The translations under genes and the position numbers were made by a program. DNA of 64,000 bases, taken from the NCBI RefSeq assembly GCF_030013595.1, contig NZ_CP122769.1; one strand, 5' to 3'. This document shows, one piece after another, positions 2,432-56,208 of this stretch. How positions within the stretch are numbered: position 1 is the stretch's first letter; each line of letters starts with the position of its first letter. Origin of the DNA: Escherichia coli (lineage in GTDB: Bacteria > Pseudomonadota > Gammaproteobacteria > Enterobacterales > Enterobacteriaceae). The notes under the pieces are model-generated. The model did no database searches and was not told where the DNA came from. It saw only the letters and a program-made list of their open reading frames with translations.

Positions 2432-2809
2432 ATGTCATATCTTGAATATATCAATGAAGTAAAAGTGTCCGGGATAGTTATCAGTGCTGTGGAGAAAAAA
2501 ATGACTGACCAGAGTATAGGTTTGTTAATAAAGCTCAAAAATAGGATGAAGACAGAAGTTGATGGTGAAATCACTGAGAGAGAATTTTCAGTTCAAATCA
2601 AGGTGTCGCCTGAAATGTATTCAACCTGTTTCACTGGTATAAATCAGGGTGATGAGTTGATGGTCTCCGGTTATATTGTTGTCGATACTATTATGATTGA
2701 AGGGAGAGAACATCCTCTTGACTACATGAGAGTGGTAGCAACAAGTAAGTTGGCTCACATACCTAAACCTCTAAAAGGTTTTGGACAAAGTAGCTTTAAT
2801 CAGATCTGA
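2432..2809 (+). CDS. hypothetical protein, possible OB-fold ssDNA-binding-like
   Basis: 125-aa ORF with RBS GAGGAGCGG upstream. Alternating beta-strand pattern (NEVKVSGIVIS ... EFSVQIKV ... ELMVSGYIVV) loosely resembles SSB OB-fold; assignment is weak. Confidence 0.4.
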   Translation: MSYLEYINEVKVSGIVISAVEKKMTDQSIGLLIKLKNRMKTEVDGEITEREFSVQIKVSPEMYSTCFTGINQGDELMVSGYIVVDTIMIEGREHPLDYMRVVATSKLAHIPKPLKGFGQSSFNQI

Positions 2810-2829
2810 CATTAAACCCACCCTAAAGG

Positions 2830-2860
2830 GGAGAAATCCCTTCATGGGATTTCTCCTTTT
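2830..2860 (+). terminator. intergenic stem-loop (11-bp perfect stem GGAGAAATCCC/GGGATTTCTCC, loop TTCAT) followed by TTTT
   Basis: Perfect inverted repeat read directly from sequence, T-run downstream, sits between stop of upstream ORF and RBS of next ORF. Confidence 0.5.
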
Positions 2861-2869
2861 GGAGTCCCC

Positions 2870-3847
2870 ATGAAACAAAAATTTAGGGCTACTGCAATAA
2901 GTAGTAATCAACTTAGTTTTTTTTCTATACTCGATATAGATGAAGATGAAATAACGCAAATAGTTGATTCACCCAAAGAGCATTTAAATGATGCTTACAC
3001 GTCCGGATTAAACTTTAAATCAGAAGAAAGTAACATTTCTGAGATAAATTATGATTCTGAAAGGCGTGAAAATCACCTTTATGAAAAATCCAAATTACTT
3101 AAAAATCAGATTTTGCATACAATTAATTTTGCAGCAGAAACAGATTATCTATATACGGTTGAAGAATATAACCCAGATTTGGGTGGTCTGGTAATAGAAT
3201 GGACCCCTGAGGATGTGTATGTTGTTTTTCTATCCGCTATGGAAGAGTCTTTGGAAATCATTAAAGAACTAGTGTTGAGGAGAAAGTTATTCTTCAAAGA
3301 TGACAATGGTAATATCACAGTGAATCCACTTTTAGAAGCTGAAACACGGTGGTATATGTCAAAATCATTTGAATACACTTGTTTATCTCATGGACTTGAT
3401 GCATGTGAATTTAGAGCGGAATTAAAATCATGGCTCTATTATCATTCGCATCGTTCGATTAGTGAAAACACGAAATTAGCTGAATGCAGGAATGATGATG
3501 AAATCATTTTGCATGATTGCAATGACGATATGGGCTGGGACATCTTCTTTGATCAGGATTATTTAATGTCAGAAAAAAAACTGGCTGTTAAATGGACTGA
3601 CAGGGAAATTATGGATGTTTACATAAAAGCTTTTAAATCCACATTAGAGTTGTTTGACGAGCTTGTTTCATGTGATCTGTTAACTAAACGAAACGCTTTT
3701 GGCAAGTTAGAAATCAATCCAATATTCGAAAATCATTTTGAATGGATCATGTCTGAAGCTTTTGAAATAGTGGGAAATCATCTTGGTTATAATGTGCCTC
3801 AAATCAGGAAACTGATGGCAACTATTTGCCAAATGAATCTCAAATAA
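2870..3847 (+). CDS. hypothetical protein
   Basis: 325-aa ORF, co-directional with neighbours, preceded by stem-loop and GGAG-like RBS. No recognisable motifs. Confidence 0.5.
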   Translation: MKQKFRATAISSNQLSFFSILDIDEDEITQIVDSPKEHLNDAYTSGLNFKSEESNISEINYDSERRENHLYEKSKLLKNQILHTINFAAETDYLYTVEEYNPDLGGLVIEWTPEDVYVVFLSAMEESLEIIKELVLRRKLFFKDDNGNITVNPLLEAETRWYMSKSFEYTCLSHGLDACEFRAELKSWLYYHSHRSISENTKLAECRNDDEIILHDCNDDMGWDIFFDQDYLMSEKKLAVKWTDREIMDVYIKAFKSTLELFDELVSCDLLTKRNAFGKLEINPIFENHFEWIMSEAFEIVGNHLGYNVPQIRKLMATICQMNLK

Positions 3848-3904: not shown

Positions 3905-4963
3905 ATGTCTAATGCCGCTATGAAGTTAAATGAAACATCTTCTGATGCTTATGAAAAATTAGAAGCTCTTCTTTCCCCGGATGTTATAAAGTTAAAACAT
4001 TATGTGGATAAAGGTGAGTATCTTTTAGTTCTAGCAAAGGACCTTTTTGGTATTCCAGAAATGGATCCAAAGATGGCTGTGCCTGTTTTCAAAACTAAAA
4101 CCTCGTATCGAGCTCCGCTGAACAAAGACTACATACCAAATCCCCGAATACTTGAACAAGTGGTTAAACTGCTTATCAGTCCGGATATAGATTTAAGTGT
4201 GTGTCTTAAAGGTGAGTCCGGTTCTGGCAAGACTGAAATGGTAATGTACATTAGCCACATGATGAATTGGCCGCTGACAATTAAGCAGATCAACAGCAAT
4301 ATTCGAGTTGATGAGCTTGAAGGTGAGCGCAGTCTTAATGGTGGTAATACAGGTTTTGTACACAGCGATTTGGTAACGGGATTTCGTAATGGTCACCTCA
4401 TTCTTCTGGATGAAGTGGACAAAATCGATCCTGATACGGCAGCAAAACTTCACATGCCCATTGAACGTAAGCCCTGGTCACTCAGTGCTAATGGTGGTGA
4501 GGTTATAACTGCTAATGGCTACACGCGATTTATTGGTACTGCAAACACAAACATGAGTGGAGGCGCTCGCCGGTTCGTTTCTTCTCAACGTCAAGATGCA
4601 GCTTTTATAAAGCGGTTCTTGATAGTTGAAATGGAGAAGCCCGACAAAGTTGCTTTAACCAATGTGCTTACTAAACGATATAGCTCTTTGCCTTTTCAGG
4701 TCATTGAGAAGTTCGTAAGAGTAGCGATTGCAGTAAATGACTCTGGTACAGAAGACAGTGTGATGGATATTCGTCAATTAGTAGCTTGGGTTGGCACGTC
4801 GATGACGTTAAAAACCTTTAGTCTTCTTGACACTTTCAAAATAGCTTTTGCTTCTGCTTTACCTTTACATGTGGTCGATCTTGTTCTTCAAGCTATAGAT
4901 CTTTCTCTTGGCGAAGACAAGGATAAATCGCTGGAGTATTTCACAGCAAAAAAGTCGAGTTAG
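3905..4963 (+). CDS. AAA+ ATPase, MoxR/CobS-like
   Basis: Walker A GESGSGKT, Walker B HLILLDEVDK, downstream sensor-like FIGTANT; size and motif spacing typical of MoxR/CbbQ/CobS-type AAA+ proteins. Confidence 0.8.
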   Translation: MSNAAMKLNETSSDAYEKLEALLSPDVIKLKHYVDKGEYLLVLAKDLFGIPEMDPKMAVPVFKTKTSYRAPLNKDYIPNPRILEQVVKLLISPDIDLSVCLKGESGSGKTEMVMYISHMMNWPLTIKQINSNIRVDELEGERSLNGGNTGFVHSDLVTGFRNGHLILLDEVDKIDPDTAAKLHMPIERKPWSLSANGGEVITANGYTRFIGTANTNMSGGARRFVSSQRQDAAFIKRFLIVEMEKPDKVALTNVLTKRYSSLPFQVIEKFVRVAIAVNDSGTEDSVMDIRQLVAWVGTSMTLKTFSLLDTFKIAFASALPLHVVDLVLQAIDLSLGEDKDKSLEYFTAKKSS

Positions 4964-8960: not shown

Positions 8961-10193
8961 ATGACTTATGCATCCCCGGCTCTTCGTCGTAATCCACAGG
9001 AAGTATCTGAACACTTTATTAAACTCGTTCATGCTCGAATTGCTGAAGTGTCTGGCTGGAAGTATATATTCGAAAGAATACCTGCTTTCAAAGACGCTTG
9101 TGCAAAAGCCCCGAGCCAGGTTCCTTGCCCGTTTACTGGCGCAGGGAAATCGAAGTTTCGTTTCCGACAAAAAGACCTTTATACCGGATGTGCGATCCAT
9201 AATGACTTTCCGGTAAATGAGTTTTGCGACGGAATTGATGTTCTGGCGAAATATTATGAATTAAGTAAAACGCAGACTTGCAAAAAGATTCTCTCAGATT
9301 TTTTCGGGATGGATCTGCATGCTCCGTTAACTGACGCCGACATTGAAAATGAACGACGCTATAAATCAGCAGTTCGTGCCACAGAAACTCTTGACCGAGA
9401 GGAAGTGGCAAAGCGAATGCGAAAACTTGATGTGATGTATCACTATACCGGTGAAATCAAGCCTAATACTCCTGTTGCTTTGTACCTCCGTAATCGTGGG
9501 ATCTCCCGCTTACTGAGTCACTTACCAAAGGATTTAGGCTTTAATAACCGGATCTACTATTGGGATAAAGATAAGCAGAAATCGATTATCTATCCGGGAA
9601 TGATTGCGATCTATCGTGACACCCGAGGTCGGCCTCTGACTATTCATAGAACATACGTAGACAAAAATGGTGATAAGGCACCTGTAGAAAATCCAAAGCT
9701 GATGATGAAGCCTCCTGCCGATATGACAGGTGGCTCAATTCAGTTGTTTGACCCTCACTATGATTCAGGTAGTTCGACCTGGACACTGGGAGTGGCTGAA
9801 GGGATCGAGAACGCGCTTTCTGTTGTAGAAGCGACTTCAACACCATGCTGGGCAGCCAGCTCCGCATGGTGCCTTGAAAACGTTACTGTTCCTGATTTTT
9901 TACTGCCTCCGCCGGATGTAAAATCTATAAACTTTTATATCTGGGCGGATAAGGATATTGCTAACTCACAAGGCACTCGTGCCGGTATTGAAGCTGCTCA
10001 GCGACTTCAAAGCCGCATGGTTGAGTTTTTGGCTAAACGATATCCCGCATCAAAGCTGACAATTGAAGTCTTCGAACCAGCACAAGATATTCCTGATGGG
10101 AAAAAGGGTATCGACTGGAACGATGTTCTCCAGTTAACAGGGCAGGATGGATTCCCGATTCACTGGGCTCCTGAATGTCTTAATCAGCTGTAA
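8961..10193 (+). CDS. Toprim-domain protein, putative primase-like
   Basis: Toprim-like motifs LGVAEGIENALSV (acidic E) and IWADKDIANSQG (DxD), Cys/His-rich N-terminus. Start chosen at ATG 8961 (MTYASP...); ORF extends to 8889 upstream. Confidence 0.55.
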   Translation: MTYASPALRRNPQEVSEHFIKLVHARIAEVSGWKYIFERIPAFKDACAKAPSQVPCPFTGAGKSKFRFRQKDLYTGCAIHNDFPVNEFCDGIDVLAKYYELSKTQTCKKILSDFFGMDLHAPLTDADIENERRYKSAVRATETLDREEVAKRMRKLDVMYHYTGEIKPNTPVALYLRNRGISRLLSHLPKDLGFNNRIYYWDKDKQKSIIYPGMIAIYRDTRGRPLTIHRTYVDKNGDKAPVENPKLMMKPPADMTGGSIQLFDPHYDSGSSTWTLGVAEGIENALSVVEATSTPCWAASSAWCLENVTVPDFLLPPPDVKSINFYIWADKDIANSQGTRAGIEAAQRLQSRMVEFLAKRYPASKLTIEVFEPAQDIPDGKKGIDWNDVLQLTGQDGFPIHWAPECLNQL

Positions 10194-10463: not shown

Positions 10464-10985
10464 ATGAATTTTCAAATTAACGAAGTTTTTAATAAATTTG
10501 CTGCTGTTATAAAATCGCGCATCGTCAATGAACCATCGTCATGCTATTTGCTGCATGATAATGAGATAGATATAACGATTTTGAAACATAGCATATTAGA
10601 AAATGACAGAAACCTGTTGTACGTAGTTCGTCCTTCAGGAACGTGTTTGTTGCGTTGTGACAAATATTTCTATCCGAAATATTATCTTCGTTGCCGTGGA
10701 GATTATAAGTCATTCATATATGTCCATCTTGATCTACATAGTGGTGAAGCTAAAGAAATCACATGGGAGCAAGCAGACGATATGCTGTCTAGTCCAGGAA
10801 AACCCCCATTAAAAGGGAATCTTGGACGATTTGAGTATATAAAAGTTGTGGTTGAGGACCTTCGTATTCGAGGTTACGCTGATTATCTTCCTGCGTATAA
10901 TCTTGATGACCTTCGCCGTTTTGCCTTACAGGACGACCGCCCATCCCTTGTCAGATACATTGACAATGTCATGGCAACGGTCTGA
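10464..10985 (+). CDS. hypothetical protein
   Basis: 173-aa ORF with RBS GGAGAG upstream; no recognisable motifs. Confidence 0.45.
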   Translation: MNFQINEVFNKFAAVIKSRIVNEPSSCYLLHDNEIDITILKHSILENDRNLLYVVRPSGTCLLRCDKYFYPKYYLRCRGDYKSFIYVHLDLHSGEAKEITWEQADDMLSSPGKPPLKGNLGRFEYIKVVVEDLRIRGYADYLPAYNLDDLRRFALQDDRPSLVRYIDNVMATV

Positions 10986-11063
10986 TTGATTGCTAATTGA
11001 TTTACATATTTTCCCTGATGGCCAACCTGCATCAGGGAGGCCTCAATAACGAATGGAGGCTGT

Positions 11064-11942
11064 ATGAAGTTAGCTACGGACCTGGTAAAAGCTATTTTGA
11101 TTAGAAATGGCGTTGAACCAGTAAATATAAGCGAATCATCTAAGTTATCTTTGAAACAACCACTGACAGAACTTAAATTCAGTTTATATTTGCGAACTGA
11201 GCATTTATCTCACTTCCTACCCGGTTATGTTTATTCTATAAAAGAATGTCCACTGTCATATGACATCGGGATCGAAATTCAGAAAATCTTCGAAAGTTTA
11301 CATTTGTTAAACGAAGAATTTGAATCCCTCGGTTTTGTTTCTGTATGGATAGAAATGCATCAAAGCATTTTTGAACAAAGTCGGTTTAAGAAAAGTAACT
11401 TTACTTTTCGGGAGGAAGAGGTCGAGCTTGCTAAAGGGCTTGTTTGTTCTCACAATTCACAAATAAGTAATGCGGCTTATTTCTGGCTTCAGCACTTTGA
11501 GGAGTTTATGATTTATGTTCGTAATAAGCTTATCGACCTCTTTCGAGAGGCCTATGACCTGATCCTTGGAATGCAGCAAGTATTTTTCATTCGGGAAAAG
11601 GAAGAGCTGTTGAAAACTATAAGTTATGGCGATGAGCTGTATGAGGTGAAATTCATGGCGGCTGAGCTTTACTCTATCGAACAGAACTTAAAGTGTTCTG
11701 AATCGATAAGTACAAAATCTCAAGCTTCGGCATATATTAACCGCATCCGTGAGTTTGTGCGTTCGGGGTGGAGGCAGGGCTATATAGTCTGCCATCATAA
11801 GCGAAGTAATCAAATTTCATCATTGTCATTACCGATGTACTTGAAAGATACGTCAGGCCGAAGTGCTCGAAAGCGAGTAAAACGTCTTATATCTTCTACA
11901 GTTTGTGGTAGAAATAAAGATTTAGGTCTTACAGATTTTTAA
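11064..11942 (+). CDS. hypothetical protein
   Basis: 292-aa ORF with RBS GGAGG upstream, preceded by stem-loop CCCTGATG...CATCAGGG; no recognisable motifs. Confidence 0.45.
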   Translation: MKLATDLVKAILIRNGVEPVNISESSKLSLKQPLTELKFSLYLRTEHLSHFLPGYVYSIKECPLSYDIGIEIQKIFESLHLLNEEFESLGFVSVWIEMHQSIFEQSRFKKSNFTFREEEVELAKGLVCSHNSQISNAAYFWLQHFEEFMIYVRNKLIDLFREAYDLILGMQQVFFIREKEELLKTISYGDELYEVKFMAAELYSIEQNLKCSESISTKSQASAYINRIREFVRSGWRQGYIVCHHKRSNQISSLSLPMYLKDTSGRSARKRVKRLISSTVCGRNKDLGLTDF

Positions 11943-11960
11943 TTAAATTATACCCATGTG

Positions 11961-11996
11961 GGGATCACACCCCATATGGGAGTGATCCCTTTTTTT
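11961..11996 (+). terminator. stem-loop GGGATCAC...GTGATCCC with nested palindrome CCCATATGGG, followed by T7
   Basis: Inverted repeats and T-run read from sequence, between stop at 11942 and ATG at 12013. Confidence 0.5.
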
Positions 11997-12012
11997 ATTG
12001 AGAGAGGATCAC

Positions 12013-12948
12013 ATGAAAATTATCGAAAAAATCATTAATGCCTTTTTGGTTGTTCAACATAAAAAAATACAGGTTAAAAACATTACATTTTTAGACAATG
12101 GGCAGGGCATGTTCTCTGGTATGTCTTTTGATGCTGATGTTTCACTGGAGTTTATGTATGAATCAGCAAAAGCATATAGTTCTTGTTTCTTTGATATTCC
12201 CTTTCCAGGTTTTGAAGATGCAAATCTGGAGGAAATTACGAAATTTCAATTAGATGCTTTGAAGCAAAGAAAGAATCATTCTTTCTTTGTTAACCATTTG
12301 AGGTTTCCTATAGTTTTAAGGGAAGGGTGCAAAATCGAAAGAGGAGAAGTCTATTCAATTTCGAATTGCACTTATAATAAAGAAAGATTGCAGTATCTTT
12401 TTTCTCAGGATATTTACGGTAAGTTGTATAATTCCTTAGAGAAAGAATTAAGCTCGTTTTTCTCATTTATCAATGTTGAGGTGCACGAGTTGTTAAAAGA
12501 TGCTGTATGCTTTGCATTAAAAATCCTGAATAAGATATCTTTGGATACACCTGAAAGACTTATTAAAGCTTTTAATTATCGTGACTGGTATTGTAGTTAC
12601 GATGTTGAGCTTTTTAGGAAAGGCTTACCTGGTCATATTCTGGAAGAGCTCATTGCTCCAGATATCTTACTTTCAGACCTTAACGGTTGTAGAAAAATAC
12701 TTAGAAATGCAAAACGATTTCTAAATGGACATACACAAACCAATTGTGTTTATATTAAATATGAATGGTGGTTGGGGCCTGTTGATACCTCACACTCAGC
12801 TAAGTTGATGTCTGACAAAGAAATTAATAACCGAAGTGACTTGAAGAATTTTTCAAAGGTCTTTTTCAAAGAGTGTTTAAGTTCTGGTAAGTCGGAATAT
12901 GAAAACCATCTTAGTGAAAAAGAACATGCGCTTCGCTATAATTATTAA
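12013..12948 (+). CDS. hypothetical protein (~312 aa), first of a tandem array of similarly sized genes
   Basis: ATG at 12013 preceded by RBS GAGAGAGGA (the listed ORF starts at an upstream TTG). No recognisable motifs. Confidence 0.45.
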   Translation: MKIIEKIINAFLVVQHKKIQVKNITFLDNGQGMFSGMSFDADVSLEFMYESAKAYSSCFFDIPFPGFEDANLEEITKFQLDALKQRKNHSFFVNHLRFPIVLREGCKIERGEVYSISNCTYNKERLQYLFSQDIYGKLYNSLEKELSSFFSFINVEVHELLKDAVCFALKILNKISLDTPERLIKAFNYRDWYCSYDVELFRKGLPGHILEELIAPDILLSDLNGCRKILRNAKRFLNGHTQTNCVYIKYEWWLGPVDTSHSAKLMSDKEINNRSDLKNFSKVFFKECLSSGKSEYENHLSEKEHALRYNY

Positions 12949-13016
12949 TTAAAATTATTTTCTCCCATAGGGATTTCTCCCTATGGGAGAAATCCCTCTA
13001 TTAAGAGGGTATTGAA

Positions 13017-13688
13017 ATGAATGCTATACAAAAGTTAGTTGAATCTATTCTTGTTAAAATGGGTTTTGTTGGCGCTGTAGTGGAAAATATATATTTGGAT
13101 TCAAAACCATTTCGGCATATTCGATTTGTGGCTGATATTCCAGTAATATCTTTTCTACCTCATTTGGTGAAATATCTTAAGGGTGCAGACCATCTTTACA
13201 GTGGTAACGATGATTTGCATCCTCTTTTCATTTATTTTTCCGAAGCGGCTACATTAAAAGCAGGTCCTGTAAATCTCGCGAACTTTCGTTTTGAAGTTTC
13301 TATAGCTTCAACTCATTTACGACTGGTCTCAGAGCAGCCTGATTTGCTTTTCAAAGGATTTAACCGGGATAATCTAGAATACGTTTATTACCGCTCAGAT
13401 TTGGCCTCTAGGGATCTTATACTAGGCCTTGTTGAACACGGTTCTCCTTTCATAAAACATCTACATGGACTTATACAAAAGCGAATTTTAAACGAGTTCT
13501 CTCTGATTTTTTCTGTTCTTGAAAAGATTTTAGAAAGCGCGAAGCCACAAATTCTTGCTTGCTTCCATAGTGTTGATTATGAAATGAACGTAAAAATAAT
13601 AGCCGAAGCTATACCTGAAACTGTATCTAATCAGATAGTCACATCTGATTATATAGTTAATGTTAGCGCCAATGATATAAGACTGTAA
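13017..13688 (+). pseudogene. 5' part of a gene interrupted by the IS21-family element
   Basis: Stop codon TAA (13686-13688) lies inside the first bases of the IS end TGTAATTCGCC; the reading frame resumes in the same frame after the element (15787 onward). Confidence 0.5.
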
Positions 13689-13761
13689 TTCGCCATTTGG
13701 GTTGTCCGCTCCACCCAACATGTTGTTTCCTTGAGGTTCTCACACCAGAAAGGACATCGAC

Positions 13762-15731
<1,970 letters not shown>

Positions 15732-15786
15732 TCAAATAGCGGACATTAAAAATGGCGAAAACCGGCCATAAATCTTGGCGTTGACA

Positions 15787-16067
15787 TTAATTCTATATCA
15801 GATGCGGACAAGTTTATAAATCATGTTCGTCGCTATTTAGCAGGCAGGGTAATGAAGAGGCGGATATACGCTGAATTAGATGTTTGTGAAGAAACATCAA
15901 GTATTTCACTAGTGAACTTAGGATGCTTTACGTCTCCTCTGCTCGTTACGGAATATCAAATGTTTAAGCCACACTCTTCAGGGTTATATCGAAAAGCTAT
16001 AAACAACTCCTTAAAACAGTTCAAACCAGAAATGCATGTACCTTCTGAAGAACTCTTTTATAATTAA
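15787..16067 (+). pseudogene. 3' part of the gene interrupted by the IS21-family element
   Basis: Frame is open from the IS end to stop at 16067 and is the same frame (mod 3) as the 5' part; combined length about 316 aa, matching neighbouring genes. Confidence 0.45.
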
Positions 16068-16078
16068 TCTAACCCATC

Positions 16079-16115
16079 CGGGAACCTGCTTCCCGGTGGG
16101 AAGCACTTCCTTTTT
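16079..16115 (+). terminator. stem-loop cassette CCGGGAACCTGCTTCCCGG / GGGAAGCACTTCC followed by T5
   Basis: Inverted repeats and T-run between stop at 16067 and RBS/ATG at 16134. Confidence 0.5.
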
Positions 16116-16133
16116 AGTCATGAGGTAGTGTAA

Positions 16134-17072
16134 ATGTTTAAAGAATCTGACCACGTGGAATTTGTTAGTGCCTTTCTTTATCAAAATTTAGGCCTTAATG
16201 TTTCCGCTGACGATATAACCGTTCAATTATCTGATACTTCGTTCGACAAAGTAACCTTTGATTACGATGTAGATATCGATAATTTAAATTGTATGTTGGA
16301 TCTCTACATATCTGAGCTAATAAAGCACAACGCATCTTACTCCGATTCTATTCTTTTGAAACAAAAAATAATTTATTTTCTTGGAGTATTTAAGAATTTC
16401 GGATTTTTTACGTTTGATATTCGCGGATATAGTAATACTTTAAGCCCAGTTAAAGTTATTGATATTGTTTCAATGATTATTAATGACTGTGAAGAGTTAT
16501 CTAAAGCTAATTCTTCTACTGATGCTATAAGAAATCTTTATCTCGATAAAATGAAGGTGGATGGGAAAGTGTTAGTTGCGAAATTTGCACTTAAACAGTT
16601 TTTTCATTCCGACTTTGGTGACTTTATCTCATTTGTCGAGAAAAGAATTACAGATTGTCTTAATGAAACTTTAAGGATTATCAAAGCTGTTGAACATGGC
16701 TTTGTACGTGTAGGGCAGCATAAGATTAATCGCCGTATTAATGATGACTTAAAGTTATGCATTGATTTCAATACTGATGATTATCCGGCAAATATGCCAG
16801 ATATATATATTAAGTTTAACGATACATTTGATGGGAACGGGGCGTTATATTGTGACAATGATGCCCTCATATCCCTCTATACCGATGTTGCTTCAATTAT
16901 CAATGTGCCGGTGATGATGGAAGTAAGATTGATCAATAAAAGAGGGCGTGTTGTCTGTGATTCTTCGCATTCAACTTACGTATCTCTCGAAAGTAATGAC
17001 CGATACAGAGTAACTGATCGCACATTACTAATAACTGAAGCTTTTGACGATTTTCGTAACGCGTCTCAATGA
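16134..17072 (+). CDS. hypothetical protein, paralogue A of tandem pair
   Basis: 312-aa ORF with RBS GAGGTAGTG. Shares colinear blocks with next gene (KVLVAKFALKQFFHSDFGDFISFVEKRIT vs QVMIARFALQQFWDTHFIGLITFVSESIT; EAFDDFRN vs EVFDNLRN). Confidence 0.5.
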   Translation: MFKESDHVEFVSAFLYQNLGLNVSADDITVQLSDTSFDKVTFDYDVDIDNLNCMLDLYISELIKHNASYSDSILLKQKIIYFLGVFKNFGFFTFDIRGYSNTLSPVKVIDIVSMIINDCEELSKANSSTDAIRNLYLDKMKVDGKVLVAKFALKQFFHSDFGDFISFVEKRITDCLNETLRIIKAVEHGFVRVGQHKINRRINDDLKLCIDFNTDDYPANMPDIYIKFNDTFDGNGALYCDNDALISLYTDVASIINVPVMMEVRLINKRGRVVCDSSHSTYVSLESNDRYRVTDRTLLITEAFDDFRNASQ

Positions 17073-17237
17073 TCCTTTTGCTTCAGTCCAAAAAAGTAAC
17101 TTTGGTTGGCTGAAGACACTTGTCTATGACAATGTAAAATCTGTCGCTGGCATCTTCTTTTAGCTTAACCAAATTTTTATCTAACCCAGTGGGGAAGTCG
17201 CTTCCCTTCTGGGGCACTTCCTCTCAAATTCGAGGTA

Positions 17238-18200
17238 GTGTATATGACACATTCATCTGATGATAAAAACTATGTCCGAGCAGTTCTGAGTTATCTTGGC
17301 ATAGATTTTGATGAGGCGGATATAGTATTAAGTGTTTGCCATTGTCAAAGTGACGAGCTTTCTTTTACCTGTAATATCAAAGCTATTGAACTCAAGAATG
17401 CTGTTGATTTATATGTCGATAGTATCTCTGAGAATGAAATAGAAGCTTTAAACAGAGAATCTTTAAAATCGCGACTCTGTTACTTTCTTGAGGTGTTTGA
17501 CGCAGTCTCTGGTCAGTACCTTGAAATTTCAGGAAAACACTTTGCAACTAGTCGTTTTGAATATGATGATGTTTGTAGTGAAGTTCTTAGCATGTCTAAT
17601 GATGTTTCTCAGTCGAAAGGTTATGACCGGGATGAATATAACAGACTGATGCAGGTTGATGGTCAGGTTATGATTGCCCGTTTTGCTTTGCAACAGTTCT
17701 GGGATACTCATTTTATTGGACTAATAACATTTGTATCTGAGTCTATAACATCGAGCCTCTATAAAGCTTATGAAACTTTTAGTGATATTAGTTTGGCTTG
17801 CTATAAACTGAGTGAATATTCTTATTCACGCTCTATCAACAGTGAATTGACCCTTAATATTTCACTTAAAGAAAATGACTTCTGTGAGGACCTATCTGAT
17901 TGCTATATGGAAGATGAGGCTTTACCTTCTGGTAGGGTAATTTCTCGACGCAACAATGACTCCATAATAAGTATTTATGAGAGCTATGCTGCGGCTTCTT
18001 ATATTCCGATGATTGCATCTTTGGAAGTCGTTGATGAATACGGCGAAGTGGTTACTGACCTCTGCCATACCGTTTATGTTTCAGAGTTAACCGGTGGGCG
18101 GATTAAAATCCACGACCGTAATGACTTAGTATCTGAAGTTTTCGATAACCTAAGAAATTTAAATCTTGCAGTTGGAGATTCAGTTTCACAAGCTGCTTGA
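17238..18200 (+). CDS. hypothetical protein, paralogue B of tandem pair
   Basis: 320-aa ORF with identical RBS context (GAGGTAGTGTATATG); colinear similarity to 16134-17072 product. Confidence 0.5.
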   Translation: MYMTHSSDDKNYVRAVLSYLGIDFDEADIVLSVCHCQSDELSFTCNIKAIELKNAVDLYVDSISENEIEALNRESLKSRLCYFLEVFDAVSGQYLEISGKHFATSRFEYDDVCSEVLSMSNDVSQSKGYDRDEYNRLMQVDGQVMIARFALQQFWDTHFIGLITFVSESITSSLYKAYETFSDISLACYKLSEYSYSRSINSELTLNISLKENDFCEDLSDCYMEDEALPSGRVISRRNNDSIISIYESYAAASYIPMIASLEVVDEYGEVVTDLCHTVYVSELTGGRIKIHDRNDLVSEVFDNLRNLNLAVGDSVSQAA

Positions 18201-18239
18201 TTCTTTCCCTGATTTTGATTTTTTCTCACATACTCTTAT

Positions 18240-18263
18240 GGCACGGTTTCCGTGCCTTTTTTT
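18240..18263 (+). terminator. Rho-independent terminator GGCACGGTTTCCGTGCC + T7
   Basis: Perfect 7-bp stem with 3-nt loop followed by TTTTTTT, 40 bp after stop at 18200. Confidence 0.6.
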
Positions 18264-18462
18264 GCCTCGCTTACAAGCGTCTACTCCTCTTCTACCTATC
18301 CCACCTTACATCACCACTTAAAATCTATCTTTCTAATTCCATTATCCTTTTCGTAGCCTCTAATGCTCTGGTATGAACATACTCTTTAAACTCAAAAAAG
18401 TGCTATTAACGAAAAAAAATCCCTAAAGAGATTTGTATACTGTTCTCAACCAAGGAGAGCTC

Positions 18463-18738
18463 ATGAATGAACTAAAATCCAAAAACGAGAACAGTACCAA
18501 AAGCAACTTTCCCCCGGTTGATAATCAGTTTTGCTTTTACCATGTTGATTTCAGCATAGAACGACTACTTTCTACGGCCGAGGATCTCCAGCTTGAGTAC
18601 ATCTTCCAGAAACCTGGAAGTGAAGTAAGAAAGGATTTGGTTGAGCGATTTGAACGTGGAGAGCGCTTTGTTACAGCTTCACACTGTGACAATTTCTGTG
18701 AAATCCTTGGTTGTCAAGGCCATCAGGAAAATGCATAA
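18463..18738 (+). CDS. hypothetical small protein
   Basis: ATG at 18463 preceded by RBS AAGGAG (listed ORF starts at upstream TTG). No recognisable motifs. Confidence 0.35.
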   Translation: MNELKSKNENSTKSNFPPVDNQFCFYHVDFSIERLLSTAEDLQLEYIFQKPGSEVRKDLVERFERGERFVTASHCDNFCEILGCQGHQENA

Positions 18739-18782
18739 ACCCATAAACCTACATTTCCACTTTTAAGGATGTTCACTAAAGA

Positions 18783-19373
18783 ATGATTGGAGAAAGTATT
18801 TTTGACTGGGTAATTTACGGAATATCCATTTTGATATTTGCCTCAGCACTAATTGAAGGAAAGACAACTCGCTACCCAGCACTTTTTTTCTATGGGAGTT
18901 TAATTTTAATGTTAATCCTGATAGTTGCTGGAGGCCTTAACTGGTGGTTCTACAGGTCAAAATATGGCGCAGTAATCGTTATCTTCACAGTGGTTTCTTT
19001 ACTGATGACTCGATTCCGCCTGGTCATATATAAATTAAGATTAAGAAAGTTAGTTTCAGAGATCAGATTTCGTATAAAAACGGGTTTTCGTATAATTCTT
19101 GTTTTGTCGGATAATGAGGATGAGCGTAATGTTCTGCTGTCTATGCTTAGCAACGTATTGCCAGAGCAAACGCTTATTCACACGCGTGATGCTCTCGGAC
19201 CTCATTCAGGGCCTATCCTAAAAGCTCTTGAGCTACATCATCAACAGGGAACAGGTTACATACTCGTCTGTGAACAACAAATCTCAGCGCGTACGTGGTT
19301 GAGTATCGTAGAAAATGGGAAACCTGATACATCTATAGCTGTTAATTTTCATTCGATCCCAGAAATGGAGTGA
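18783..19373 (+). CDS. hypothetical membrane protein
   Basis: 196-aa ORF with three predicted hydrophobic segments in the N-terminal 75 aa. Confidence 0.45.
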   Translation: MIGESIFDWVIYGISILIFASALIEGKTTRYPALFFYGSLILMLILIVAGGLNWWFYRSKYGAVIVIFTVVSLLMTRFRLVIYKLRLRKLVSEIRFRIKTGFRIILVLSDNEDERNVLLSMLSNVLPEQTLIHTRDALGPHSGPILKALELHHQQGTGYILVCEQQISARTWLSIVENGKPDTSIAVNFHSIPEME

Positions 19374-49290: not shown

Positions 49291-50616
49291 ATGAGCCGGA
49301 AACAGCAACGTCTGGTAATTTGGATGAACGGCATCAAAGTCGGGTACTGGGAAAAAAGCAAAGGGGTAGACAGCTTAGAATACCTTCCTGAATGGGTTGC
49401 TGACGAACAGGGAAGGCCGCTGTCATTGTCCCTTCCTTTTACTCCCGGGAACCAGGTCTGGCGTGGAAATGTGGTACGTGACTATTTTGATAATTTACTG
49501 CCGGACAGCGAAGGCATACGCAGACGTCTGGCAATGCGTTACAAGGCCGATAGCCTGGAGCCTTTTGATCTGCTGACGGAGCTGGGAAAAGACTGCGTGG
49601 GCGCGATACAGCTGCTTCATGACGGAGATGAACCCACTGATTTATATTCCGTGAAGTATCACCCGCTTACTGAATCAGAAATTGCGGCAACTTTGCGTAA
49701 TACCACGGAGACATTGCTACCGGGCAGGCCAGAAGATAACGACGACTTACGTTTATCTATTGCCGGTGCTCAGGAGAAAACAGCCCTACTGTGGCATGAA
49801 GATCGGTGGTGTATGCCGGAGGGTAATACACCAACGACGCATATATTCAAGCTACCGCTCGGACTTGTGGGGAACATGAAAGCCGACATGAGCTCGTCGG
49901 TTGAAAATGAATGGCTCTGCTCGGTACTTCTCGGCCAGTACGGGCTCCCCGTGGCAAGAACGCAGATTGCTCACTTTGAAGATCAGAAAGCGCTGGTGGT
50001 AGAACGTTTTGACCGAAAATGGTCAGGAGACGGACAATGGATCATTCGTTTACCCCAGGAGGATATGTGTCAGGCCCTGGGCGTTTCGCCATTACGAAAA
50101 TATCAGGCGGACGGCGGGCCAGGTATATCGGAAATTATGGAGGTTCTGAGTAATTCAGACCGTGCTGAGCGTGACAAAGCGCAGTTTTTTATGACGCAGA
50201 TAATTTTCTGGATGATGGCCGCAACAGATGGCCACGCTAAAAATTTCAGTATTTCTATTGGGCCACAGGGACGTTATCACCTTACACCAAACTATGATGT
50301 GTTGTCGGCATGGCCGGTGATCGGTCATGGGAACAATCAGATATCCTGGCAGAAGTGCAAACTGGCGATGGCCGTACGTGGCAGTAGCAACTATTACCAG
50401 ATATATCGAATACAACGACGCCACTGGATCAGGCATGGTGAGATAACCGGCCTGAGTAAACAGCAGACAGAGGCGATGATAGAGGAAATCATCGCCAGAA
50501 CCCCGGGTGTCATTGAACGTGTTAGCGGGCTTCTTCCGGACCAGTTCCCCCAGCAGCTTGCGGAAAGTATTTTTGATGGAATGAGGCAGCAATGCAGGCG
50601 CCTGGCTGAGAAATGA
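49291..50616 (+). CDS. hipA: HipA serine/threonine kinase toxin
   Basis: Colinear with E. coli HipA including SIAGAQEKTALL, VERFDR, RLPQEDMCQ and ATDGHAKNFS motifs. Confidence 0.9.
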   Translation: MSRKQQRLVIWMNGIKVGYWEKSKGVDSLEYLPEWVADEQGRPLSLSLPFTPGNQVWRGNVVRDYFDNLLPDSEGIRRRLAMRYKADSLEPFDLLTELGKDCVGAIQLLHDGDEPTDLYSVKYHPLTESEIAATLRNTTETLLPGRPEDNDDLRLSIAGAQEKTALLWHEDRWCMPEGNTPTTHIFKLPLGLVGNMKADMSSSVENEWLCSVLLGQYGLPVARTQIAHFEDQKALVVERFDRKWSGDGQWIIRLPQEDMCQALGVSPLRKYQADGGPGISEIMEVLSNSDRAERDKAQFFMTQIIFWMMAATDGHAKNFSISIGPQGRYHLTPNYDVLSAWPVIGHGNNQISWQKCKLAMAVRGSSNYYQIYRIQRRHWIRHGEITGLSKQQTEAMIEEIIARTPGVIERVSGLLPDQFPQQLAESIFDGMRQQCRRLAEK

Positions 50617-51407: not shown

Positions 51408-52223
51408 ATGAGAGAGCCAAGACCACGCCATACCTTGCAGGTCATTCGTGTACCTTCTCTGGAGGTTCAGGACCTGGGGCTGACCAGCTTTGATAGCTGG
51501 CTTGACGAGCACGGGTATGACAAAACGAATGCCAGAAATAACCGTACCATCTGGGCGAGAGAAGGCGGATGGCATCTGAAACGTTGCAGAAATCTTGAAA
51601 CTGGCACGGACGATTTCTGGTTTATCGCTTTCGATGGTAAAGGCGGGAAGATTTACCCGCTGAAAACCCAAAGAGACTACCGGGCTGCATATCGTAAGCT
51701 GGAAGCAGAAGGTTATGCGCCTGCGGTCATCGAGCAAATGACCACAGGCGCAGCATATAACCTGGCCTATCCACGTTCCACCCTAAAACAAGCTGAGACG
51801 GCCACCAGCGAGCCAATTCGGAAACCTGACGTAGATATCCAGGGTGAGCACTGCGAGCGCGTAGTGACGCAACGTAGTGGCGTGGCACAGGGTAAATTCA
51901 AAGCTCTGCTCATCGAGAATTTCGCAGGCCGTTGTGCGGTAACCGGTTGGGTTAATGGAGGTGTCCTGGATGCGGCACACATTGAACATGGAACCCGGTA
52001 CAATCCGTCTAATGGCATCCTGATGACTCCAACAATGCATGCGCTGTTTGATGCCGATCTTATGGGCATAGATCCGGCCACCCTGACCGTTCATTTTAAG
52101 CCAGGCATTGAGGTGGGCGAGCTGTTTGAAGGCCGTAAAATCACACCGCTGGTGTACGATCTGGACTTAGAGCGGCTGGCCGTACGCTGGGCAGAATACC
52201 AGGGCCTTGCTCAGGACCAATGA
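51408..52223 (+). CDS. HNH-family endonuclease
   Basis: C-terminal HNH signature CAVTGW...DAAHIEHGTRYNPSNGILMTPTMHALFD. Confidence 0.65.
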   Translation: MREPRPRHTLQVIRVPSLEVQDLGLTSFDSWLDEHGYDKTNARNNRTIWAREGGWHLKRCRNLETGTDDFWFIAFDGKGGKIYPLKTQRDYRAAYRKLEAEGYAPAVIEQMTTGAAYNLAYPRSTLKQAETATSEPIRKPDVDIQGEHCERVVTQRSGVAQGKFKALLIENFAGRCAVTGWVNGGVLDAAHIEHGTRYNPSNGILMTPTMHALFDADLMGIDPATLTVHFKPGIEVGELFEGRKITPLVYDLDLERLAVRWAEYQGLAQDQ

Positions 52224-52476: not shown

Positions 52477-52598
52477 ATGAATAAAACAGCTTTAATTATG
52501 ATTCTGGGAATCCTCGGATGTGGTAAAGCATTTGCAGCCACTGAATTACAGCTCCAGCAAAAACGCGTTATGCATTTCTGTGCCAATGCCAGCCTTCC
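52477..52598 (+). pseudogene. 5' end of a small lipoprotein gene truncated by IS1
   Basis: ATG with RBS AAAAAGGA; signal peptide with lipobox ILGC; coding frame runs into the IS1 left end. Confidence 0.3.
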
Positions 52599-52654
52599 GG
52601 GTGATGATGCCAACTTACTGATTTAGTGTATGATGGTGTTTTTGAGGTGCTCCA

Positions 52655-52930
52655 GTGGCTTCTGTTTCTATCAGCTGTCCCTCCTGTTCAGCTACTGACG
52701 GGGTGGTGCGTAACGGCAAAAGCACCGCCGGACATCAGCGCTATCTCTGCTCTCACTGCCGTAAAACATGGCAACTGCAGTTCACTTACACCGCTTCTCA
52801 ACCCGGTACGCACCAGAAAATCATTGATATGGCCATGAATGGCGTTGGATGCCGGGCAACCGCCCGCATTATGGGCGTTGGCCTCAACACGATTTTCCGC
52901 CATTTAAAAAACTCAGGCCGCAGTCGGTAA
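52655..52930 (+). CDS. insA: IS1 InsA
   Basis: 91-aa product with zinc-finger [10 protein letters not shown]...CSHCRK and HTH, matching IS1 InsA. Confidence 0.9.
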
Positions 52931-53352
52931 CCTCGCGCATACAGCCGGGCAGTGACGTCATCGTCTGCGCGGAAATGGACGAACAGTGGGGATACGTCGG
53001 GGCTAAATCGCGCCAGCGCTGGCTGTTTTACGCGTATGACAGGCTCCGGAAGACGGTTGTTGCGCACGTATTCGGTGAACGCACTATGGCGACGCTGGGG
53101 CGTCTTATGAGCCTGCTGTCACCCTTTGACGTGGTGATATGGATGACGGATGGCTGGCCGCTGTATGAATCCCGCCTGAAGGGAAAGCTGCACGTAATCA
53201 GCAAGCGATATACGCAGCGAATTGAGCGGCATAACCTGAATCTGAGGCAGCACCTGGCACGGCTGGGACGGAAGTCGCTGTCGTTCTCAAAATCGGTGGA
53301 GCTGCATGACAAAGTCATCGGGCATTATCTGAACATAAAACACTATCAATAA
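52849..53352 (+). CDS. insB: IS1 InsB (expressed as InsAB' by -1 frameshift)
   Basis: 167-aa frame overlapping insA 3' end; sequence matches IS1 InsB. Confidence 0.85.
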
Positions 53353-53510
53353 GTTGGAGTCATTACCGGCAGCATCAACTACATCGCAAGCAGTAAGAGT
53401 AAGTGACGATGCCACAGCAAGACACAATAAAGAAAATCTGTTTTTGAACATATTTGAGACCTTTTATAAAAATAAAATAACAGGAGAATTGTATCATTAA
53501 CAGTCTAGTT

Positions 53511-54176
53511 CTAACGACTACCACTTTTAAGTATGTATTGAGCCAGTTTTATATTCAGGCACACCATATTGCACTCTAGCTCTTTCATCATTCTTGAAGA
53601 ACTCTTAATTAAGTATTCTTCAAGTGGGCCAGCATATGCCCCTGATGTCACGATCGTTAGTTGCGTAAGAGGATGAGTCAAACTCTCAATGCCCTTCAGG
53701 ATGTCATTCTGGACAGCAGCAATATAAACAGGCGAAGCCGCAATCAAATATTCATCATTCGGGCTGGACTGCATTAACTGGCTTATAGTTGCGCAACGGT
53801 TATGCTTACCTAGTGATTTTGTGATGGCTTTCCACCAGAGATCATGCCTGAATGGTACTTGATGAAATGTCGCCTCGTAAGAGGGCACCCGATCTCGACT
53901 ATTTAAAAACCCCATCCCGGCAGAGATTATCCACAACTCCAGATTTCTGGTTGAGTTTAAAATTTCCTTTGCCGTAGACCAGTGATTACCTGAATACAAG
54001 GACAATGCCGGTACCGCCTGATTACTTCTGGCGTCGTCTACAATGTTACTCCAGGCATATGCTGCGTCGTCCGGGGTTTGTTTTGGATCTATGTCCAATG
54101 TCGGCCAGACGTGGCCCTGATGATTCTTGCCCTTTGTACAGGAAGTGATTAAGTGTACTGAGCGTTCAGAGAACAT
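53511..54176 (-). CDS. hypothetical protein
   Basis: 221-aa ORF downstream of and co-directional with 54234-54614; no recognisable motifs. Confidence 0.45.
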   Translation of the reverse strand: MFSERSVHLITSCTKGKNHQGHVWPTLDIDPKQTPDDAAYAWSNIVDDARSNQAVPALSLYSGNHWSTAKEILNSTRNLELWIISAGMGFLNSRDRVPSYEATFHQVPFRHDLWWKAITKSLGKHNRCATISQLMQSSPNDEYLIAASPVYIAAVQNDILKGIESLTHPLTQLTIVTSGAYAGPLEEYLIKSSSRMMKELECNMVCLNIKLAQYILKSGSR

Positions 54177-55365: not shown

Positions 55366-56208
55366 ATGGCTAGGGGTAGGCGTCTCAAATCCTATTTGGA
55401 TTATGAAAATGCGCTAGGTGACGGCATAGGAGTGGGCTATGGCCAAAGTTATCAGCCCTGGCTTAGAGCTCAGGACGTTAAATCCCGTGGAAACCGTTCG
55501 ATAGTCTTTGGCCTTAAGACGTTTCGAAACCATCATCTCCTTTCTTCTGTCGAAAGTAACTTTTTCTATCTGGCTGAGTTTAATGACTCGGTGATTGATA
55601 TCCGGGAACAATTCCCACTCTTTCCTCTCCGGCTTACCCAACAAATAGCAAATCATCTACATTTTCAACATCCTATGGTGAGGGGAGTAAGAGGAGTACC
55701 TGTCGAAGTTCTGAATGTTATGACAACCGATTTTTTACTGACCTTGAGAACTCCTGAAGGCGGACTTCGATACAAAGCTATAGCAGTAAAACATAACGAG
55801 AGCATACCTGAACGCGAAGCCCAAAAACTTGAAATAGAGAGGATGTTTTGGCAGTTGATTGATGTTGAGTTTCAAATTTATGTTGGCTCGGAACTCAATA
55901 ACGTCGTCGGTAAAAACATTTGCTGGGCTACTTCTGTATTAAGAGATGGTTCTGAATTTTATGATAAATATCCTCTTGATAAAATCCTATGGAAGCTTAA
56001 ACCAGATGTTTATCCCATAGTAGGACTACGTGCAATGATTTCATCAATCTTTGGGGTAGATGCACAAGAAGCGATGATGTTATTGCAGGCAATGATTGGA
56101 TTAAAAATGATAAATGTTGATTTATCATATCCAATACTCGAAACCGGTCTGATAAAGATAATTTCCAATGACCACTATATAGGACTGAACGCAAATGGAT
56201 ATTATTAG
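55366..56208 (+). CDS. tnsA: TnsA-like endonuclease
   Basis: Colinear with Tn7 TnsA (YQPWLRAQDV..., HLLSS, IDIREQFPLFPL, LEIERMFWQ). Confidence 0.85.
   Translation: MARGRRLKSYLDYENALGDGIGVGYGQSYQPWLRAQDVKSRGNRSIVFGLKTFRNHHLLSSVESNFFYLAEFNDSVIDIREQFPLFPLRLTQQIANHLHFQHPMVRGVRGVPVEVLNVMTTDFLLTLRTPEGGLRYKAIAVKHNESIPEREAQKLEIERMFWQLIDVEFQIYVGSELNNVVGKNICWATSVLRDGSEFYDKYPLDKILWKLKPDVYPIVGLRAMISSIFGVDAQEAMMLLQAMIGLKMINVDLSYPILETGLIKIISNDHYIGLNANGYY

Follow-up and report, generated by a model that had tools for sequence, protein, structure and literature searches.

The window, the 64-kb stretch of DNA analysed here, is IncHI2 plasmid backbone, with a ter operon, hipBA, HNH genes and a Tn7-like tnsABCD element with sil/pco. 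It is collinear with the Salmonella enterica plasmid NZ_CP117034.1 (from pig faeces, with mcr-1 and blaTEM-1), the two differing by 1 bp in length over 64 kb. Its single copy of IS1 lies between the remains of two convergent signal-peptide genes, and the features of the locus are as follows.

51408 to 52223, plus strand: intact HNH-endonuclease-motif gene of the upstream backbone (WP_001572439.1 in NZ_CP117034.1)
52477 to 52599, plus strand: left signal-peptide gene, 41 native codons of 141 aa (WP_001043843.1, beginning MNKTALIMILGILGCGKAFAA), cut by IS1
52592 to 52599: GCCTTCCG, the retained left copy of the 8-bp target site duplication (TSD) from the original insertion, which recurs right after the IRR in two relatives (L012/L017 and L013, below)
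52600 to 53367, plus strand: complete IS1 with an IS1B-type transposase, 768 bp
52600 to 52622: IRL of IS1, C8A allele, GGTGATGATGCCAACTTACTGAT
52655 to 52930: insA of IS1, a 91-aa InsA ORF
52906 to 52912: A6C frameshift motif, AAAAAAC at IS1 position 307
up to 53352: insB frame, open
53345 to 53367: IRR of IS1
53368 to 53379, minus strand: native 12-mer GGCAGCATCAAC, directly abutting the IRR, the deletion target site; present in IS1-free plasmids
53368 to 53451, minus strand: lipoprotein gene, 28 native codons of 151 aa, reading MFKNRFSLLCLAVASSLTLTAC and then DVVDAA; 3' part deleted
53483 to 53491: empty site B, GGAGAATTG in single copy; a different IS1 with this 9-bp TSD occurs in some other IncHI2 plasmids
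53511 to 54176, minus strand: intact downstream DUF6884-like backbone gene, 221 aa

The element has the anatomy of a typical IS1. Its length and terminal inverted repeats agree with the published description of the family (about 768 bp, with imperfect inverted repeats of about 23-30 bp; PMC12428005), and insA, the A6C motif and the insB frame are all intact, preserving the insA/insB -1 frameshift feature of IS1. With a degenerate IS1 end pattern (GGTRATG...CCAACTTAYTGAT), both inverted repeats showed 0 mismatches, 0.01 being expected by chance, and these two repeats were the only matches in the 64 kb. The transposase is annotated as IS1-like element IS1B family (WP_095033700.1), and Pfam Zn_ribbon_InsA and HTH_Tnp_IS1 match the transposase product in identical loci. 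The left boundary had been placed 1 nt too far left in the original prediction and is corrected here to 52600.

The same prediction called the ends canonical, and this is a fair description, the one change in the IRL being a natural, multi-copy allele. Relative to the commonest IS1, position 8 of the IRL is changed from C to A (the minority allele C8A). Of 5,426 E. coli genomes, 338 carry the allele, at 2,075 places in total, and 99 plasmids have it at 111 places; unrelated sites are among them, such as one in an IncHI1A plasmid. Because it is natural, widespread and multi-copy, we rejected the idea that C8A is a junction-specific hybrid or a local mutation. Further IS1 copies lie in NZ_CP117034.1 at 104494-105261, about 1.4 kb past the end of the window, and at 132934-133701; both carry C8, which indicates that the copy in the window came from a different donor.

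IS1 TSDs are normally 8 or 9 bp long (PMC12428005). At the correct boundary the 9-bp flanks are AGCCTTCCG on the left and GGCAGCATC on the right, which form no repeat, and no direct repeat of 8 or 9 bp was found at the IS1 flanks under any boundary placement. The earlier observation that the flanks lack a direct repeat is thus borne out; in particular, no 9-bp duplication emerged once the ends were correctly placed. The absence of a TSD is secondary and leaves membership of the IS1 family unaffected, and the same IS1 does have its duplication in the two relatives listed above. Adjacent deletion and recombination between IS copies are standard causes of missing TSDs (PMC11708052).

It is highly improbable that the locus is a simple insertion whose TSD has decayed or been mis-called, or an assembly artefact in which reads were collapsed across IS1 copies. 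IS copies are a frequent source of misassembly and the earlier boundary was off by 1 nt, but the lack of any repeat regardless of boundary speaks against a simple insertion, and hundreds of related plasmids have 7.8 kb of DNA between the two flanks. Moreover, two complete plasmids that were deposited independently, NZ_CP117034.1 and NZ_OY754830.1, match both IS1 junctions at 100% identity and are the only entries in PLSDB to have the two together.

The genes on either side of the element are both cut short. On the left, the native codons read on into the IRL to give a hybrid ORF (52477-52626, plus strand) of 49 aa, WP_156839068.1. The product of the left gene has ILGC at residues 12-15 followed by AFA-A, so that a lipobox and an SPase I site are indistinguishable. 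On the right, the lipoprotein-gene ORF starts at 53451 on the minus strand and reads into the IRR; an exact look-up of the resulting 54-aa hybrid returned no gene call on record. This right-hand gene matches the lipobox pattern [LVI][ASTVI][GAS]C, by pattern match only, with L-T-A-C at residues 19-22 of MFKNRFSLLCLAVASSLTLTAC. The original prediction had described one ORF with a signal peptide or lipobox running into the IS. Such an ORF is there (52477-52626, plus strand), but two convergent genes are truncated rather than one, and the classical lipobox gene enters IS1 from the right side, opposite to that ORF. Both convergent genes lack their 3' parts, an outcome that a simple insertion cannot produce. 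Two fragments annotated as 'hypothetical protein' are now identified as IS-truncated genes.

Truncation of the left gene is found elsewhere too. Clustered at 90% identity, the 49-aa hybrid groups with many more truncated versions of this gene, 50-69 aa in length, including a 58-aa form on 45 contigs, which suggests that the gene is a frequent breakpoint for insertions or rearrangements in IncHI2 plasmids.

Alignment with related replicons, the comparison by which the missing duplication was to be checked, places the two flanks in a common arrangement. In L010, the E. coli O157 plasmid NZ_CP015833.1, which we used as the common backbone reference and which lacks the insertion, both genes are intact (141 aa at 1587-2012; 151 aa at 9145-9600), neither with a Pfam match, and the breakpoints of the window lie 7,807 bp apart. 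The flanks in the window are 99.94% and 100% identical to it. Judged by L010, the lost interval took in the remainder of the left gene and most of the lipoprotein gene and, between them, an HsdM remnant, a UvrD-like helicase, HNH and small genes, a 78-aa gene and an H-NS paralogue (Pfam Histone_HNS_N and Histone_HNS). In all, about 10 backbone genes have gone, including the plasmid's only H-NS paralogue. The deleted segment gave no blastn match anywhere in the 232-kb NZ_CP117034.1, and its H-NS paralogue gave no tblastn match there; the absence of the segment from that plasmid marks a true deletion rather than an inversion or translocation.

An exact-protein look-up of the 49-aa hybrid, found on 46 contigs, led to the state before the deletion. 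The left IS1 junction is identical across L011-L015; the right flank of L011 is that of the window, and those of L012 and L013 differ. In L012/L017 (GCA_900603285.1) and L013 (GCA_964239455.1), both long NCBI contigs, the left junction and the C8A allele of the IRL are as in the window, and the IRR is followed by GCCTTCCG and then the rest of the left gene, the structure of a simple insertion with an 8-bp TSD. L017 retains the full 7.8-kb interval, an intact lipoprotein gene (18337-18792) and no other IS1, and its IS1 is 100% identical to that of the window. When 10892-18708 is taken out of L017 (7,817 bp, from the first base after the IRR onwards), the remaining sequence agrees with the window over 12,333 bp apart from 3 SNPs, all of them upstream. 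With 3 SNPs in 12.3 kb, L017 would best be regarded as an ancestor-like relative, not as a demonstrated direct ancestor. The IS1 of L013 (locus 4124-4891) carries a patch of 6 substitutions at IS1 positions 262-396, its junctions and IRL allele being as in the window; this suggests an exchange with another IS1 variant in that host, by gene conversion or recombination. IS1 junctions such as these are usable as lineage markers for tracking IncHI2 plasmids.

These comparisons favour what the original prediction had proposed, recombination between IS1 copies or an adjacent deletion instead of a simple insertion, since the window equals L017 minus 7,817 bp counted from the IRR terminus. The locus has the marks of an adjacent deletion: the left junction is that of the simple-insertion relative, the other flank has been replaced, the first deleted base is the one next to the IS terminus and the lost DNA is missing from the replicon. 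We put the probability at about 0.95 that IS1 inserted at site L, the insertion point in the left signal-peptide gene, and that an IS1-bounded deletion then extended to site A, the deletion endpoint in the lipoprotein gene. This sequence of events accounts for an IS1 without direct repeats.

We propose a model where a C8A IS1 first entered the signal-peptide gene (141 aa) of an IncHI2 plasmid, generating the 8-bp duplication GCCTTCCG, and where the same IS1 later deleted the DNA adjoining its IRR. The most likely route would be a single intramolecular replicative transposition, in which the IS1 ends attack a target in the lipoprotein gene 7.8 kb away. The interval would be released together with a second IS1 copy as a non-replicating circle, and this circle would be lost because it has no replication origin. 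The expected product is the left flank, IS1 and a new right flank, without a duplication and with two convergent genes truncated. The left junction is the original one, and the right junction, at the IRR terminus, is a novel joint.

The assemblies show directly an ancestor-like state, where exactly the deletion starts and ends, and that the segment is gone; that one transposase-mediated step produced the deletion is what we infer from them. A one-step IS1-mediated adjacent deletion is, in our judgement, the best explanation and probably the correct one, and it is equally probable when weighed solely among the routes by which an insertion may be followed by a deletion. The joint coincides with the IS end and offers no more than 1 nt of microhomology, evidence against replication slippage. 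Microhomology-mediated slippage was accordingly rejected, the shared GTCAT lying off the junction and the joint falling at the IS terminus.

The same product would also be expected if a second IS1 had inserted in the same orientation at site A and RecA-dependent homologous recombination between the two copies had then excised the interval. This series of events yields exactly what is observed, and further points speak for it: the host plasmid has two more near-identical IS1 copies, so the element is active there, the 6-nt internal patch in the L013 IS1 fits an exchange between IS1 copies, and this backbone region has been struck by IS1 repeatedly. Against it stand the need for two events rather than one and the missing intermediate, as neither PLSDB nor the 5,426 complete E. 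coli genomes hold a record of IS1 at site A together with the remainder of the lipoprotein gene. Synthetic queries for the site-A and site-L junctions with their TSDs likewise found no intermediate in PLSDB or the complete E. coli genomes, their top matches being artefactual joins to the nearby site-B IS1 or to an IS1 downstream of the left gene; the site-L intermediate was recovered only by the exact-protein look-up. We regard excision between two IS1 copies as possible but rather unlikely. The products of the two routes are identical in sequence, and the one-step mechanism is for this reason not proven.

The right flank deserves separate comment, as the original prediction saw in it a likeness to an IS1 terminus. 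The likeness is genuine. The complement of the 12-mer that abuts the IRR, GTTGATGCTGCC, agrees with the IRL tip GGTGATGCTGCC in 11 of its 12 bases, the similarity ending after these 12 nt, and sites with at most 1 mismatch to the IRL tip number only 3 over about 230 kb of plasmid, one of which is the site abutting the IRR. In a windowed test (±30 nt), 1% of random positions reach the end-likeness score of site A, a modestly significant result. A resemblance of the native sequence at site L to an IS1 end was attributed to chance, as 13.8% of random windows score at least as high as its best local value, 16.

The second part of that claim, that the flank is a fragment of IS1, does not hold. The 12-mer is codons 23-28 of the native lipoprotein gene, and with a query that takes in the intact gene and the region downstream of it, at least 546 PLSDB plasmids match over at least 80% of the query; IS1 is absent at this site in 44 of the 44 single-piece full-length matches listed. 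A 12-mer found in hundreds of IS1-free plasmids is native coding sequence and not an IS1 remnant. For the right flank to be the remnant of a second IS1 end, at a rearranged IS1-IS1 junction, is in our view next to impossible: the agreement of 11 of the 12 bases of GGCAGCATCAAC with the complement of the IRL tip speaks for it, but the 12-mer and its surroundings are identical in those 546 or more plasmids, the likeness stops after 12 nt, and all 44 listed matches have this DNA without IS1.

IS1 targets reportedly tend to resemble IS1 ends, as is said to have been found by Galas, Calos & Miller in 1980 and by Zerbib et al. in 1985; our literature search for this preference for end-like targets gave no usable support. 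The end-like 12-mer at the deletion target may reflect this tendency of IS1, or it may be a coincidence.

Deletion formation by IS1 is a classical subject, described for the gal region, reportedly, by Reif & Saedler in 1975. Like those classical adjacent deletions, the one in the window starts at an IS1 terminus, leaves the IS and the other flank in place, has no TSD and has cost kilobases of DNA. Nothing essential is different; the window is a natural IncHI2 case whose pre-deletion state is found in public assemblies. Intramolecular replicative transposition is known for IS26 in resistance plasmids (PMC4471558), and deletions bounded by IS26 or IS1 in such plasmids resemble the window in that the product leaves an IS without a TSD and a reshaped backbone. 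Unlike the IS26 cases, the element here is IS1, and resistance genes were neither gained nor lost at the junction, only backbone genes being lost. Both the IS1 and its rearrangement are ordinary and the sequences were already public; adjacent deletion by IS1 with a missing TSD is a known phenomenon.

Other IncHI2 plasmids have been reshaped by IS1 in the same region. At site B, to the right of the junction, an undeleted relative, L003 (pCFSAN061772_02), has an IS1 insertion with the TSD GGAGAATTG. This 9-mer is present in single copy in the window, which indicates that the lineage of the window never acquired the site-B insertion. In pAMSH1 (L001), the right junction of the site-B IS1 (2553-3320) is preserved, and on the left of this IS1 8,070 bp have been lost (L010 1562-9631), the H-NS paralogue and both signal-peptide genes among them. 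Of the 30 PLSDB records with at least 80% query coverage, 28 are of the pAMSH1 type. This type resembles the window in the backbone region affected, the similar size of the loss (8,070 vs 7,807 bp of backbone) and the genes lost. In contrast to the window, however, its IS1 occupies site B, the loss extends from the IRL to the left and the allele is C8, which makes it an independent event. On the sequence comparisons made here, the H-NS-paralogue region appears to have been removed by IS1 at least twice independently in IncHI2 plasmids, once in the window type and once in the pAMSH1 type. In other IncHI2 plasmids, this region is replaced by resistance DNA.

A further variant, about 95% identical to the IS1 of the window, was observed at about 1501-2268 of L020 (CP082465.1, an IncHI2 plasmid of Salmonella Brandenburg). 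It has the H-NS paralogue on one side and the 78-aa gene on the other, and is one more independent insertion of IS1 into this 8-kb interval.

H-NS and Hha proteins have been implicated in the thermoregulated conjugation of IncHI plasmids (PMC6764697), and given this role the deletion could be phenotypically relevant. It is tempting to speculate, although we hold it quite doubtful, that the recurrent loss of the H-NS-gene region might be selected and, separately, that the 12-mer may reflect target capture by end-like sequences. If selected, the loss could bring relaxed silencing or thermoregulation of transfer, or a lower cost in certain hosts. As it stands, this mcr-1 IncHI2 plasmid lineage is short of 7.8 kb of backbone, the H-NS paralogue included, a finding of little weight beyond annotation.

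Some neighbouring features merit mention. A HipA-family toxin gene lies at 49291-50616 of the window, with an HTH (HipB-like) gene upstream of it in the matching plasmid; this HipA/HipB-like pair is a type II toxin-antitoxin module on the backbone. About 2 kb to the right of IS1, the Tn7-like tnsABCD module begins at 55366 with a tnsA-like ORF (55366-56208), and in the matching plasmid it carries the sil and pco silver and copper resistance clusters. Of the two extra IS1 copies in NZ_CP117034.1, one is flanked by an 8-bp TSD, TTAATTTC. The other, beside blaTEM-1 and mcr-1, has no TSD, probably the sign of a further IS1-associated rearrangement.
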